A stretch of DNA of 64,000 bases from Candidatus Poribacteria bacterium (GTDB lineage: Bacteria > Poribacteria > WGA-4E > PCPOR2b), in the NCBI GenBank assembly GCA_965208325.1, contig OZ242326.1, positions 3,744,001 through 3,808,000 of the forward strand, read 5' to 3'. Under the pieces are notes generated by a model that had not been told where the DNA came from, did no database searches, and was given only the letters and a program-made list of their open reading frames with translations. Both the position numbers and the translations under genes were made by a program. Below, piece after piece: positions 15,031 through 19,174 of the stretch; position 1 is the first letter of the stretch; each line of letters opens with the position of its first letter.

Positions 15031-15212
15031 TCTGTTCATTGTGCATTTTCACCGGATACCGCTTTTGAGTTGACCAATACATCTGTGAAGCAGTATAATT
15101 TCGCCAAAACCCCTAGTTGTTTGGGACCGCGAATTCAAAACGGCAACCGCGAGGGTTGCCCATTCAACAATTATGTTGCGTTCGATTCTCACGTTTGTAC
15201 GGTGTTTCGGCA

Positions 15213-16037
15213 ATGAATCTCCAACCCACGGATTTTATCCTAGAAATTGGGAGCGGACACAATCCGAAAATTCGATCCGATGTATTATGCGACAAATTTA
15301 TTGATGATGACACCCAGCGGGGAGGAAAGATCGTCGCAGATCGGCCAGTGGTTGAAGCCGATGGACAGTATCTACCATTTGCGGAGGCATCGTTTGACTA
15401 TGTTATTTGTTCGCACGTGTTAGAGCATGTTGAAAATCCCGACTTACTAATTTCTGAACTAATGCGTGTCGCCTCGCGGGGCTACATAGAAACACCGTCC
15501 GAGATTGCCGAGCGGCTTTACGGCTGGGAATATCATAACTGGGTTATCAATTTAATTGACGGTCAGTTAATCATCCAAAAAAATCTGGCCAAAAATCCGT
15601 TCGGTCAGCTTTTCCACACGCTTGCGGCTCGTGATAGAAATTTCGCCAAATTTCACATCGCCCACCATGACATCTTTCTCGTGAAGTATGAATGGGCGGG
15701 CAAAATCGACTACAAAATTCTCCCGCCGGATACATCGCCGCTTGATTTAGATTCACCCGAGACGATTGATACCATGCTAAATCGGGTCAATTGTGTACCA
15801 CTTTGGCAAAGGTGGTTGCGAGTTGCGAGAGGTTCCATTCCAAAACGGGTTGTGTTTAGGACAAAGACTTTTTTAGCCAAGCGGCGCATAACCCCGAAGA
15901 AAACGCTGCAAGAGATTGTTGTGTGTCCGGTTTGTAAAGGAACGGTAGAGTGGGAAACTCATCAAATCTGCTGCGGACACTGTGATATCAACTATCCCAT
16001 TGTCCGAAGAATTGCTCGGATGCGGCCTCCGGCGTAG
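15213..16037 (+). CDS. Class I SAM methyltransferase with C-terminal Trm112-like Zn ribbon
   Basis: ILEIGSG, LPF..ASFDYVICSHVLEHV; C-terminal CPVCKG...CGHC..YPI...I. Start moved to MNLQP. Confidence 0.85.
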   Translation: MNLQPTDFILEIGSGHNPKIRSDVLCDKFIDDDTQRGGKIVADRPVVEADGQYLPFAEASFDYVICSHVLEHVENPDLLISELMRVASRGYIETPSEIAERLYGWEYHNWVINLIDGQLIIQKNLAKNPFGQLFHTLAARDRNFAKFHIAHHDIFLVKYEWAGKIDYKILPPDTSPLDLDSPETIDTMLNRVNCVPLWQRWLRVARGSIPKRVVFRTKTFLAKRRITPKKTLQEIVVCPVCKGTVEWETHQICCGHCDINYPIVRRIARMRPPA

Positions 16038-16291
16038 TGAAATTAAAGAAACCGAGTTTTGAAGAAATAGTATCAAATGACCTGATGATAGTTGGAATGC
16101 GCGTGGTTACTGACTTCGAGCCATCATCAAATGAGCGAGTTATGTTGGCTTAATTAGCTTATCCGTCAAGAAATTCATTTGGTTTGGCTAGAAGCGTGAC
16201 AAAGTATACCAAAATGGCTATGGCGTGCCAAGCCGATGCCAAAGAAAGAGACGTTGTTTTCCCATGTCTAAGCAATAATAGGCGTATGCTG

Positions 16292-17185
16292 TCATTGCAA
16301 GTCTCCTGTAGGTTTGGAACTGGACGGCACGGTGTTATCTTTGCCGTCTTCCAAGTTTGCGTTGATGTCATTCAGCGAATGTTGAGGAATTAGGTCGAGA
16401 TATTGAGAGATGACGCGCTTGGAAAGTTTGGTAATCTGAGAGATTTTGTCAATGTCATCGGTAGCGGTGCGAACAATCTTAACGGACTCATAATCATGGA
16501 TGTATCGGTCAACAGCTTCTTTGGAGTGCTTGGTTTTGGCAGCAATGGTCGGAGTCAGGTGCCCTTGTAGATAAAGGGTAATAATCTCCTTCTTGTGTGT
16601 AATTGCCGCCGATAAATCGTGAATGTTGCCGCGAGTGGGCAAGATTTTTCCACTGGTGCTTTGCCACTCGTTGACATACTCACTCACTACTGGGTCGCGG
16701 ACGTTGAGCAACACAGCCAGGTCTAGTTGAGTCAACAATGCCCCTTGGTCATAGGCTTGATAACACCATCGCACCAATCGATGAATTCTGAGTTCACGAG
16801 AGCTGAAGCCGCTGTAATAGTGTTCAATGTCCTCGGGGGCCACAAAGCTTAAAACCACAGGCTTCATGCGGGTTTTAACGATTGACTTGGCTCTCTGTGG
16901 ATATTCGTCAATCGGCACAGCCATCCAAACCAGTTGACCATAGCTAAGCATTCGTTCATCAGGAAGTTGTTCTCCAGCGGCGAGTTTATCAAGTGGCAAG
17001 CGAATCAGGAAATAGTCTTCAATAGTTTTGACGATGTCATCGACAATGGCTTTGGCAGTCACTTCGCCTTTGTCATACCCATAGGAATTGATAAAGCGAT
17101 GAATCAGCAACTGCCGCAACGATTTATCATTGATACGTCTGATTTTCTTCTCGTTGATTTCGGTTCGAGTCAATGATTTACTCAT
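16292..17185 (-). CDS. DUF1670-like protein B
   Basis: R..R...QAYDQGALLTQLDLAVLL, PTRGNIHD...THK..II.LYL.G, T.HS..AVDRY; paralog of the upstream gene. Family name is from motif recall. Confidence 0.8.
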   Translation of the reverse strand: MSKSLTRTEINEKKIRRINDKSLRQLLIHRFINSYGYDKGEVTAKAIVDDIVKTIEDYFLIRLPLDKLAAGEQLPDERMLSYGQLVWMAVPIDEYPQRAKSIVKTRMKPVVLSFVAPEDIEHYYSGFSSRELRIHRLVRWCYQAYDQGALLTQLDLAVLLNVRDPVVSEYVNEWQSTSGKILPTRGNIHDLSAAITHKKEIITLYLQGHLTPTIAAKTKHSKEAVDRYIHDYESVKIVRTATDDIDKISQITKLSKRVISQYLDLIPQHSLNDINANLEDGKDNTVPSSSKPTGDLQ

Positions 17186-17982
17186 GAGTTTTCCCCCTTT
17201 TTTTCATCAACGGGTTCAGGATGAAGTAAAGTCGTCATTCGCTCTGTATGTTCGTATTTATCATACAGGGAGAGATACTCACGAATCAATCGGTCAGAGA
17301 GATGGGTGATGAGCCGTATCTGTTCCTTTGGAAAGTCTTGATGATGGAGGGTTGCTACCTGAGTGAAATTACGCAAGTATCTCAACACGGCGCGTTCGGT
17401 GTGGTTCGTCTTTCGCTCAATGTCGGTGAATTGATAGCCTTTAAAGTACAGTTCTAGGATTTGGGTTTTATGAGAGATGCCGGGGCCCATGTCGTGTTTG
17501 GCGCCGCGAGTCATTACAAAAAACCCTTGCTGTTTCAACTGTCGAATGTCTCGTTTGACGGTCGCCGGGCTGGTGGTTAATAGCACCGCTAAATCTTCAT
17601 AGCTGAGCAAAGCGTCTTGGTCATAGGCTTGTTTGGTTAACCGTAAGATTCGATGTCGTCTGAGTCCTGCAAGTCCATAGTTGGCTAACACCTCAAGATC
17701 GGTGTGCACATCATTGAGGGTGAGTTGGCAGGAGACCTTTTTGGCTAAGGCAATGTGTTTACCTGCGGGTTCGTCGGCGGCTACGGCTTCATAGCAGATT
17801 TGGCCTGATGTGAGTTTAATATCGGCGTGTTGGGCAAAGTAGGAAGAAATCTGATTATAGTAGGCTTCGGCAAGGATAGGCATCAGATTGAAGTCTGACG
17901 CAATCTTCTGAATAATTGCCGCTCTCGCCGTCTTTGATTCCAGACGATTGATACCGTAGTTTGAATGACTTTGTGGTTTCAT
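17182..17982 (-). CDS. DUF1670-like protein A
   Basis: RRHRILRLTKQAYDQDALLSYEDLAVLL, TRGAKHDMGPGISHK, TNHTERAVLRY; GGAGG SD before ATG 17982; ATGA overlap with protein B. Confidence 0.8.
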   Translation of the reverse strand: MKPQSHSNYGINRLESKTARAAIIQKIASDFNLMPILAEAYYNQISSYFAQHADIKLTSGQICYEAVAADEPAGKHIALAKKVSCQLTLNDVHTDLEVLANYGLAGLRRHRILRLTKQAYDQDALLSYEDLAVLLTTSPATVKRDIRQLKQQGFFVMTRGAKHDMGPGISHKTQILELYFKGYQFTDIERKTNHTERAVLRYLRNFTQVATLHHQDFPKEQIRLITHLSDRLIREYLSLYDKYEHTERMTTLLHPEPVDEKKGENS

Positions 17983-18202
17983 AATGACCTCCATGGATTC
18001 ATGGTAATTGATGGAAATAACATCTGTTATCAGTTTAACTCATGGGGTCATTTGATACAAACTATAAAAAACTCGGTTTAAAGCACCACGGTTTACGCCG
18101 CTGGGAGGCAAGAACATAACGTTAGCGACTATCTACATTCTACATGACCATAAAAAAACGGAGAAAACTGACCAAAAGCTGGAATAAGGAGTGCTCACAC
18201 CA

Positions 18203-19174
18203 ATGGAAGACCTTCAAGATACATTCAATGATTCGGAAGAACGCAACGTCATCATTATCGGCGGCGGTACGGCTGGCTTTGCCGCTGGCGTTTACACCTC
18301 GCGGGCAATGCTTGAACCGCTGCTCATTACTGGCGATGCGCTCGGCGGACAGCTTTCGTTGACGCTAGACCTGGAAAACTATCCAGGCTTCTTCGGCACG
18401 GAAGCCGTGGAATTCATCCAAGGCATGCAGAAACAAGCCGAGCGCTTTGGGACGGAAGTGCGGTTCGACACCGTGACAGCGGTCGATTTCAATCGCCATC
18501 CGTTCTATGTGAAGACGTATGAAAAGGAGTATCATGCCAAGGCGGTCATCATCTGCACCGGCGCCTCGCCGCGAACACTGAATATCTCCGGTGAAGCAGA
18601 ATACGGCGGGCGCGGAGTTTCGTACTGCGCAACTTGTGACGGATTTTTCTTCCAGGACCAGCGCCTGATTGTTGTCGGCGGGGGCGATGCGGCGCTTGAG
18701 GAAGGGCTGTTTTTGACAAAGTATGCCTCGGAGGTTTATGTGGTTCACCGCCGCGATCAACTCCGTGCAAGCCAAATTATGCAGGCACGCGCCTTCAAGA
18801 ACGATAAGATGAAATTCATTTGGGACACGGTCGTTGAAGAGATTCAGGGCAATAGCGGGAAGGTTACAGGGGCGCTGCTCAGAAATGTAAAGACCGATGA
18901 AAAACAGGTGTTTCCTATTGATGGTGTGTTTATCTTCATCGGGCATATCCCGAATACAGACCTGTTCAAGGGTATTATTGACATGGACGACCAAGAATAC
19001 GTCGTCGTCGATAACCTCCAGCAGACCAATATCGAAGGCGTTTTTGCAGCAGGTGACGTGCACGATCACGTCTTCCGCCAGGCTATTACTGCCGCTGGTA
19101 CGGGGGCAGCCGCAGCCATCTCGGCAGAGAAATTTATCGCTGCGTTGGAAAACCGCACCTACCCCGGGCAGTAG
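18203..19174 (+). CDS. trxB: Thioredoxin-disulfide reductase
   Basis: IIIGGG, GGQL..T..LENYPG, GVSYCATCDG, VGGGDAALEE, HRRD, GVFAAGDV.D..FRQAITAAG. Confidence 0.97.
   Translation: MEDLQDTFNDSEERNVIIIGGGTAGFAAGVYTSRAMLEPLLITGDALGGQLSLTLDLENYPGFFGTEAVEFIQGMQKQAERFGTEVRFDTVTAVDFNRHPFYVKTYEKEYHAKAVIICTGASPRTLNISGEAEYGGRGVSYCATCDGFFFQDQRLIVVGGGDAALEEGLFLTKYASEVYVVHRRDQLRASQIMQARAFKNDKMKFIWDTVVEEIQGNSGKVTGALLRNVKTDEKQVFPIDGVFIFIGHIPNTDLFKGIIDMDDQEYVVVDNLQQTNIEGVFAAGDVHDHVFRQAITAAGTGAAAAISAEKFIAALENRTYPGQ

Follow-up and report, generated by a model that had tools for sequence, protein, structure and literature searches.

A mobile DUF1670 element in the loop of a repetitive extragenic palindrome of a Candidatus Poribacteria genome

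Introduction

A 64,000-nt stretch of the 4.7-Mb genome of a sponge-symbiotic Candidatus Poribacteria bacterium (the window; the source genome is called G000) contains two genes for DUF1670 proteins that are enclosed by nested inverted arms, and the locus raises the question of which of these arms belong to a mobile element and which to the site that the element entered. Coordinates are those of the window unless marked as genome. On the left, the order is AAACCGAGTTTT (16049-16060), GAAGAAATA and GTATCAAATGACC (16070-16082), and on the right it is GGTCATTTGATAC (18046-18058), AAACTATAA and AAAACTCGGTTT (18068-18079). A repeat search reports them as a single inverted pair, 16049-16088 and 18040-18079, of 40 nt with 80% complementarity. 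A preliminary description of the locus had correctly placed the arms 11 bp past the stop codon of a methyltransferase gene (TAG, 16035-16037). It had read the ends as attL- and attR-like products of integration into a member of a genomic palindrome family, with 9-nt cores between the arms that resembled Tn916 coupling sequences, and had named a simple transposon with terminal inverted repeats (TIRs) and a target site duplication (TSD) as the alternative.

An undescribed insertion sequence family, whose only genes encode two paralogous DUF1670 proteins with several helix-turn-helix (HTH) units, is represented at 16065-18065 by a copy that is intact and was active recently. This copy is integrated in a fixed orientation and without duplication between GAAG and AAAAAA, and the outer 12-bp arms are the stem of a host repetitive extragenic palindromic (REP) sequence. 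Its mobility is evident from four near-identical copies, a patchy multi-copy occurrence, contigs of about 2 kb and 15 short derivatives that retain both ends. We are highly confident that this is a mobile element in a REP, with arms derived from the target and with no TSD.

Results

Empty sites and exact boundaries

The source genome contains four copies of the element (genome positions 79409, 2033859, 3760049, which is the window copy, and 3854593), each within a palindrome. They are identical across 2031 bp, except that the copy at 79409 has an additional A where its left end meets the flank; their outside flanks differ, and a common duplication is absent. Two of the copies, 94 kb apart, have opposite orientations.

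The orthologous intergenic region of G002, a sister genome of the same genus with 95-97% identity, lacks the element. It reads ...GTAGTGGAATTAAAG-AAACCGAGTTTTGAAGAAAACACTCGGTTT-AAAGCGCC... and contains an intact palindrome with AAAG on both sides (TTAAAG before and AAAGC after it). Hence, the palindrome and both AAAG motifs predate the insertion. The preliminary description had contrasted this outcome with an empty site that has a single AAAG and no palindrome, and the site in G002 is of the former kind: the AAAG pair is not a TSD, and the attL/attR-like interpretation of the ends stands. Two other genomes of the genus, G001 and G003, have a different spacer at this locus, without the palindrome.

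A natural empty allele of the window locus itself is present in sponge metagenomes of other studies. In a contig of run X5, the right flank from 18066 on shows 0 differences in 185 nt and is joined directly to TTTTGAAG; in a contig of run X6, it shows 4 differences and is joined directly to CCGAGTTTTGAAG. The allele reads GAAG followed immediately by AAAAAACTCGG, and the insertion point is between GAAG and AAAAAA of the REP loop. As the outer arm is present at the empty sites of G002, X5 and X6, it is target and not TIR, which agrees with the earlier view. The proposed cores fared less well. Removal of the element does leave a palindrome, but its loop is the 6-nt GAAGAA and not a 9-mer. The two 9-mers turn out to be mixtures of target loop and element terminus (GAAG + AAATA on the left, AAACTAT + AA on the right), and joining the true ends in a circle would place 12 nt (AAACTAT+AAATA), not 9, between the inner arms.

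Related elements give the same boundaries. The exact 20-nt right end occurs in at least 120 stretches of the genome collection, 80 of which were fetched (79 titled Candidatus or uncultured Poribacteria); right junctions are constant in 80/80 by construction of this search. In 64 of the 80 loci, the left end could be identified as well, and without exception its TAG is preceded by AAA. The element-side parts of the junctions, AAATA on the left and AAACTAT on the right, are unchanged in all related loci read. The right flank starts with AAR-TAR in most loci and with a run of A followed by CTCGGTTTC in eight, namely AAAAAACTCGGTTTC in L023, L035, L052, L067, L078, L083 and L097 and GAAAACTCGGTTTC in L026. 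Among copies with mutual identities of at least 98.5%, some have AAG and some have AAA as their right triplet, whereas the left triplet is invariably AAA. An empty site at a gene end is found in G013 (...atgcttattttg-aag-tag), and its occupied counterpart in G018 reads ...atgcttattttg-(AAATAG...CTAT)-aagtaa, with TTG before the element. Here, AAA-TAG of the element takes the place of the last codon and stop of the gene.

The G013/G018 pair, the REP empty sites and the constant left versus variable right triplet thus fix the boundaries at 16065-18065, with nothing duplicated. The element is AAATAG...CTAT, 2001 bp with its genes on the minus strand, inserted 5' of AAR or, in a REP loop, 5' of AAAAAA. 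The host palindrome is split into a left half, 16048-16064 (+; G, arm AAACCGAGTTTT and loop GAAG), and a right half, 18066-18079 (+; loop AA and arm AAAACTCGGTTT). The first six nucleotides of the element (16065-16070, +), AAATAG, form a Lys-stop mimic of the ancestral target AAR-TAR. The inverted repeats that do belong to the element are 13 bp long and subterminal: GTATCAAATGACC (16070-16082, +) starts 5 nt inside the left end, and GGTCATTTGATAC (18046-18058, +) ends 7 nt inside the right end, before AAACTAT (18059-18065). Both are conserved in related elements of other genomes.

At G018:C1 ~247749 (L007/L050), the right flank starts with AAATAGTATCAAATAACC, a left end that survives by itself from an earlier insertion. 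The more recent copy lies exactly 5' of the AAATAG of this remnant, which is expected if AAATAG mimics the target.

The target palindrome is a host REP family

The host palindrome is 30 nt long, AAACCGAGTTTT-GAAGAA-AAAACTCGGTTT, with a loop of 6 nt. Its outer 12-mer occurs 100 times on the plus and 105 times on the minus strand of the genome, the inner 13-mer only 6 and 4 times, and most copies of the outer arm, seen in context, are standalone 30-nt palindromes. When up to 2 mismatches per arm and loops of 4-10 nt are allowed, G000 contains 118 palindromes against 1 in a reversed-genome control, and the surmise that a genomic palindrome family is targeted is borne out; insertion is specific for both site and orientation. 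The arms are perfect in 70 of the 118 palindromes, and the loop most often reads GAAGAA (53) or the complement of this sequence (19). The centres of 29 palindromes fall inside stop-to-stop open reading frames (ORFs) of at least 150 amino acids (aa), which cover 83.5% of the genome, and those of the other 89 fall outside. With exact arms and loops of 4-8 nt, 28 of the 41 related genomes contain the palindrome, with copy numbers between 1 and 270 (control 0); among them are 23 of 24 genomes of the same family and 4 of 5 of a second family. Genomes free of DUF1670 hold it too (157 copies in G010, 176 in G004).

G000 has two Y1_Tnp (PF01797) genes. One of them, outside the window at G000:C1:3321300-3322700 (L151/L152), encodes 188 aa with an HYH motif and is accompanied by one AAACCGAG palindrome 16 bp upstream and three 49-128 bp downstream. 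Its orthologues (72-84% identity) are present in 10 of 40 relatives, and in all 11 loci the palindrome lies on both sides of the gene, within 13-144 bp. The 38%-identical Y1 paralogue has no flanking palindrome. With 118 copies against 1 in the control, and with a single-copy Y1 gene for a REP-associated tyrosine transposase (RAYT) flanked in 11/11 genomes, the palindrome is a REP family of the REP-RAYT type. The loops of the REPs that flank the RAYT gene are in inverted orientation at L153, L154, L160 and L162 and in direct orientation at L152, L155 and L157. GTAG at a fixed distance from the stem is absent among the 118 copies; CTAC at +30 is found in 19 of them, as part of a neighbouring second repeat.

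This second repeat is headed by GTAG (bottom strand GTAGGAGCGATCTCCGAATCGCGAC) and often lies about 10 nt from the AAACCGAG palindrome, for example at G000:C1:1970638-1970700 and 2033468-2033540. The palindrome is also embedded in tandem arrays at G000:C1:1894626-1897583, 3456489-3457144, 4209645-4212497 and 1979158-1980153, with periods of about 194, 159, 194 and 489 bp, and the element copy at genome 2033859 occupies the final unit of a palindrome-bearing tandem array.

Two target classes and a probable change of target

Pairs of DUF1670 genes occur patchily and in multiple copies in 9 of the 41 related genomes. In 51 distinct loci, the target is the end of a gene, ...AC.CGgAAaATGtTgAT..tg before the crossover and AAgTAa after it. 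The C-termini encoded there show matches to FlgD_ig and to the sorting domain of type IX secretion (PF18962, cut-off 27 bits, with scores of 26.9, 25.6 and 35.6; PF13860 exceeds its cut-off). All copies in G018 (5/5), G022 (2/2) and G006 (4/4 loci) lie at the ends of such tail genes, and exact REPs are available in these genomes in 270, 60 and 28 copies, respectively. All copies in G000 (4/4) and in one other metagenome-assembled genome (MAG; 5/5) lie in REPs. Of the two copies in G002, one has a REP as its target, and the site of the second belongs to neither class. In G000, the ends of secretion-tail genes gave 60 regular-expression matches, about 40 of which have a ...SG.Y.Y.L... context as judged by eye, and none carries an intact element.

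At least three tail genes of G000 (genome 2139018, 2325643 and 2657334) end in degraded left-end remnants (AAATAG or AAGTAG plus GTATCA.ATGACC...), so their present stop codons are derived from the element. The segment G000:C1:2139018-2139403 is a derivative of about 385 bp in which both ends survive.

In a FastTree phylogeny of 44 full-length elements, a single clade targets REPs. It comprises the window copy, both G002-type copies, those of the five-copy MAG and L067, and with midpoint rooting it is the sister of a small gene-end clade, nested among the gene-end targeters. We read this as a target preference that changed once and has been inherited since, the ancestral target in Poribacteria being the last Lys codon of genes with type IX secretion tails. 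Seven elements of the REP clade (L067 left out) differ from 31 gene-end elements by 7 fixed amino acid differences in gene 1 and 23 in gene 2, where they concentrate at residues 111-135 and 163-176. These differences are a lead that is confounded with phylogeny, as are the clade-separating columns in general, which are scattered over the entire element. Inspection of sequence logos by eye revealed no motif upstream of the crossover that is common to both target classes, and the ancestral gene-end targets have no conserved hairpin.

The DUF1670 proteins

Both genes are on the minus strand. Gene 1 (17182-17994) is an ORF of 270 aa (protein P0001; PF07900, E = 7.6e-64; AlphaFold2 model with a mean predicted local distance difference test score, pLDDT, of 85.5), and gene 2 (16292-17185) encodes 297 aa (P0002; PF07900, E = 1.1e-59; pLDDT 85.0). 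The Pfam scores are 215.5 and 201.9 bits over model positions 4-220 and 30-220 of 220, far above the cut-off of 25 bits, and the two proteins are 34% identical. The ORFs overlap (17994-17182 and 17185-16292). Gene 1 probably starts at the ATG at 17982, behind GGAGG at 17992-17988; close homologues of its product are mostly 264-266 aa long.

Homologues number 946 at E of at most 1e-3 in one library and 961 cluster representatives in another, and many are encoded on contigs of about 2 kb. Distant members include a Methanosarcina (archaea) control match and a homologue that NCBI lists as a protein of a Gemmatimonadota MAG. Two or three DUF1670 domains can also be fused in a single protein; such fusions contain no additional catalytic domain known to Pfam, and a CHC2 zinc ribbon is present in one of them. 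We think that the two proteins act together, possibly as a heteromer, as these gene fusions suggest. In L067, a REP-targeting relative (CAXXCS010000005.1), both DUF1670 genes form one ORF of 564 aa.

Across about 100 diverse members, His175 and Tyr206 (P0001 numbering) are invariant, and Gly64, Leu91, Arg118, Ala123, Gln126, Leu130, Asp134, Arg163, Gly164, Asp168, Gly170, Lys176, His198 and Tyr240 are at least 90% conserved. The motif P.RG..HD.G....HK sits between two HTH units. The AlphaFold models combine a small N-terminal domain of helix and beta-hairpin with a winged helix and an additional HTH bundle made of helices. The winged helix of topoisomerase VI-A reaches Z-scores of 5.6 and 6.2 in VIA-align, on a par with numerous regulators, and is no more than a lead; a search of the ESM Atlas returned HTH clusters exclusively, with a best score of 0.80. 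There is room for no more than the two ORFs in 2 kb, and Pfam finds no tyrosine integrase, Xis, DDE, DEDD or HUH/Y1_Tnp family in the element.

An outward promoter and a leader hairpin

Downstream of gene 2, the element has a 209-bp non-coding region with conserved blocks (16083-16291, minus strand). It contains a near-consensus extended -10 promoter of the sigma-70 type, TTGGCA-17-TGgTATACT (16203-16231, minus strand; 10/12 with TG in the scan), which lies on the gene strand and points out of the left end. Of the 44 full-length elements, 41 have a promoter at this distance, with 136-141 nt between the end of the -10 box and the left terminus, and the predicted transcript over the left end would be about 130 nt long. 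In the 70-nt leader of gene 1, the scan found nothing comparable. An Rfam scan of 15900-18300 at E of at most 1 returned only a chance snoRNA match of 19 bits and no family for the non-coding region. Two small ORFs, 16159-16371 (minus strand, 70 aa, no Pfam match) and 16184-16393 (plus strand, 69 aa), lie across the non-coding region and the last part of gene 2; as they overlap the conserved promoter blocks, they are probably not genes.

In the leader of gene 1 (17975-18058, minus strand), the right inverted repeat and its neighbours (CATGGGGTCATT) are predicted to pair with the ribosome binding site (RBS) and start (AATGACCTCCATG), with folding z-scores of -2.75 and -2.10 and an unpaired probability of the RBS-AUG segment of 0.16-0.17. 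In a modelled transcript that starts at the outward promoter and runs across a circle junction, the left and right inverted repeats form a hairpin with each other instead (13/13 pairs), and the unpaired probability rises from 0.17 in the integrated form to 0.50, compared to a mean of 0.20 and a maximum of 0.53 in a control with shuffled left ends. For 33 distinct elements, the mean values are 0.24 (integrated), 0.44 (circle) and 0.26 (control), and the circle exceeds the integrated form in 29 of them. The hairpin at the left end is no better than its shuffles (z-scores of 0.38 and 0.15), and consensus folding of the ends including the short derivatives, where the alignment is poor, gave no structure. 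An outward promoter and an RBS-masking hairpin that would be relieved in a circle-junction transcript fit a circular intermediate, and we slightly favour its existence.

Short derivatives and a possible scar

The 15 derivatives are 208-674 bp long and resemble miniature inverted-repeat transposable elements; what remains of the element is 72-157 bp at the left end and 36-125 bp at the right. In addition, contigs of runs X1, X5 and X8 (three studies) join position 16067 to 18059 with one A between them, the shorter side measuring only 21 nt. They represent a REP loop of the form GAAGAAA-A-AAACTAT-AAAAAA, that is, with an 11-nt remnant that includes the last 7 nt of the element. A one-base variant (CCAT) of this remnant, AAAA+AAAC(C/T)AT, occurs twice in G000, in a tandem array (G000:C1:1973077-1973117 and 1973528-1973568), and a remnant-bearing REP was found in 0 of 40 relatives. 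The remnant looks like a scar that keeps the bases outside both inverted repeats, and it may be either a recurrent excision product or one old deletion.

Neighbouring genes

Upstream of the element lies the gene of an S-adenosylmethionine-dependent methyltransferase with a Trm112p-like C-terminal tail (15117-16037, plus strand; Pfam Methyltransf_11, E = 1.3e-10, and Trm112p, E = 6.1e-05). The downstream neighbour encodes a thioredoxin-reductase-like flavoprotein (18191-19174, plus strand; Pyr_redox_2, E = 2.2e-53).

Discussion

How the element may move

The best explanation of the findings as a whole, which we consider fairly probable, is an active DUF1670 element in a REP loop that moves by conservative exchange through a circle and has switched its target once. 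The two DUF1670 proteins would jointly bind the subterminal repeats and the target and would join the ends into a circle with the junction ...CAAACTAT to AAATAGTA.... The circle would then recombine with a site that resembles its own AAATAG, which is AAR-TAR at gene ends and AAAAAA in the REP loop, and the exchange would be conservative and att-like as opposed to a transposition with staggered cuts. Expression appears to be tied to the circle, as only there would the outward promoter of the left end read into gene 1; in that transcript, the inverted repeats would pair with each other and free the RBS that the right repeat otherwise masks. The lineage present in G000 would have moved once from the last Lys codon of tail genes to REP loops.

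That the DUF1670 proteins are themselves the catalysts is plausible, though we would stop short of calling it probable. The idea draws on how small the element is, on the breadth of its host range and on the polar residues that never vary, and a catalytic tyrosine or histidine may be carried on an HTH domain. More tentatively still, the pair may constitute a new kind of recombinase without a known catalytic fold, mediated by a circle, with targeting that is re-set heritably and expression that is gated by the circle.

Several results weigh against these interpretations. Neither protein has a recognizable catalytic domain: Pfam gives DUF1670 and HTH families only, an NCBIfam search returned nothing above the cut-off, a sequence search of the PDB with P0001 gave 0 matches, Foldseek against the PDB found nothing at E of at most 1e-3, and VIA-align with both models (best Z-scores of 6.9 and 6.2) matched HTH domains only and barely covered the N-terminal ~100 residues. 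A circle junction was not seen among the contigs of X1, X5, X6 and X8, a type of data from which rare forms are dropped. The RBS effect is moderate, 4 of the 33 elements show the opposite, and the elements are kin and not independent. If the 11-nt remnant was left by excision, the element does not always depart by an exact reversal of its integration, and this suits a conservative recombinase less. Finally, the target switch depends on a single tree branch, and with about 40 tail-gene ends in G000 the location of 4/4 copies in REPs is unremarkable on its own.

Alternative explanations

An ordinary transposon, in which the outer and inner arms make up a 34-bp TIR next to a 4-bp AAAG duplication, would account for the AAAG on both sides and for the 80% complementarity of the 40-nt ends. 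The empty sites refute it, given that G002 has the palindrome with both AAAG and that X5 and X6 hold empty alleles. The remaining three copies in G000 have differing, non-matching flanks, the outer arm occurs about 100 times without the element, and related elements share the inner ends in surroundings that are otherwise unlike; we regard this explanation as practically untenable. Scarcely better is the prospect of a tyrosine integrase of the Tn916 type that makes staggered cuts and leaves variable coupling sequences. Tn916 coupling sequences differ between insertions, and the two 9-mers between the arms indeed mismatch each other. However, the same 9-mers recur in the four copies, where the junctions are constant except for one A, and they resolve into a constant target loop and constant termini. 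An integrase or Xis gene is absent from an element of only 2 kb, and the likeness to Tn916 that the preliminary description had drawn is lost. Single-strand transposition directed by a hairpin, as in IS200/IS605 or integron cassettes, with the REP folded on the lagging-strand template, is also very unlikely. Insertion into the loop of a 13-bp stem with no TSD and in fixed orientation would suit it, but gene-end targets lack a conserved hairpin, the element encodes no HUH protein and its left end folds no better than shuffled sequence. Moreover, the copies 94 kb apart are oppositely oriented, and GC skew gave no clear replication arms, origin or terminus.

Two further alternatives concern the machinery. 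The DUF1670 proteins may only recognize ends and targets, while a host recombinase of the Xer type, for which the REP would be a dif-like 12-6-12 palindrome, or the REP-associated Y1 transposase cuts and joins. The absence of a recognized catalytic fold in either protein speaks for such a division of labour, as do the arm-spacer-arm geometry of the REP and its being the substrate family of a RAYT in G000. Yet the same junction chemistry operates at non-palindromic gene ends; G002 has a REP insertion and no RAYT orthologue was found there at E of at most 1e-20; the family extends to distant phyla and archaea, so that the helper would need to be universal; and His, Tyr, Arg, Lys and Asp residues are invariant or nearly so across DUF1670. 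We consider a host enzyme unlikely, and RNA-guided targeting in the manner of IS110/IS1111 (bridge RNA or seekRNA) even more so. In that case, the non-coding transcript of about 130 nt would pair with target and ends, and a change in the RNA would explain the switch to REPs. The anatomy is indeed IS1111-like, with subterminal repeats, no TSD, a sizeable non-coding region by one end and lineage-specific targets. Against it, Pfam finds no DEDD transposase and Rfam no match, a search for clade-specific matches of at least 8 nt between REP and element found none, and the lineage-fixed differences are spread across the whole element and clustered in gene 2 instead of in one RNA loop.

Significance

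A literature search found no paper that mentions DUF1670 or PF07900, and a search on insertion sequences and palindromic targets in Poribacteria returned nothing on a DUF1670 element among the papers listed. New here are the REP-targeting lineage, its single switch, empty sites resolved to the base for each of the two target classes, the assignment of the palindrome to a REP-RAYT system and the interplay of promoter and RBS. Precise, oriented and duplication-free insertion is rare and sought after, IS110 bridge-RNA systems being the current example. A very small element manages it here with two DNA-binding proteins that are unlike any known transposase or recombinase, and its target has been changeable in nature, from the last codon of a gene to a hairpin loop. 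If these proteins are the catalysts, they represent a new enzyme class and a widespread, unrecognized insertion sequence family. Homologues, all annotated at present as hypothetical or as 'biotin operon repressor', exist in hundreds in several bacterial phyla and in archaea. For annotation, the lesson is that inverted repeats around an element can come from a palindromic target. The locus also adds a REP-RAYT system in Poribacteria.

Comparison with known systems

REPs are known targets of insertion sequences such as ISPpu9, ISPpu10, ISPsy8, ISPa11 and ISRm19/22, as listed by Tobes & Pareja 2006 (PMC1525189), and circular intermediates have been reported for ISPpu9 (PMC8450116, PMC12288879). 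The DUF1670 element resembles them in its selective, fixed-orientation insertion into a host REP and in having several copies per genome, each in a REP. IS1397 likewise inserts in E. coli palindromic units. REP-specific insertion sequences encode recognized transposases, either DEDD of the IS110 type or DDE of the IS3 type. Unlike them, the present element has only its two DUF1670 HTH proteins, and its close relatives target the end of a coding gene.

A second point of reference is IS1111/IS110 with its seekRNA or bridge RNA, as outlined in PMC11187229. Subterminal repeats, the lack of a TSD, insertion specific for sequence and orientation, a long non-coding region at one end and lineage-dependent sites are common to both. 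The DUF1670 element differs in having two protein genes instead of one, no DEDD transposase and no guide-like complementarity that we could find.

The REP-RAYT arrangement was described by Nunvar et al. 2010 (PMC2817692), where a gammaproteobacterial origin is proposed, and is treated further by Bertels & Rainey 2011 (PMC3116915) and Ton-Hoang et al. 2012 (PMC3333891). The target palindrome of the DUF1670 element is likewise short, present in about 100 copies, mostly extragenic and located on both sides of a single-copy Y1 HUH gene. It departs from classical systems in its AT-rich stem, the lack of a GTAG/CGTC head at a fixed distance, flanking copies that are not always inverted and its Poribacteria host.

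Lastly, Tn7 enters attTn7 by way of TnsD, downstream of the stop codon and with a 5-bp duplication, and uses five Tns proteins with known catalytic folds. The gene-end insertions of the DUF1670 family are similar to this 'safe harbour' strategy in that an oriented insertion at the very end of a conserved gene leaves the gene unharmed. In contrast to Tn7, however, the DUF1670 element inserts without a duplication and brings its own Lys codon and stop.

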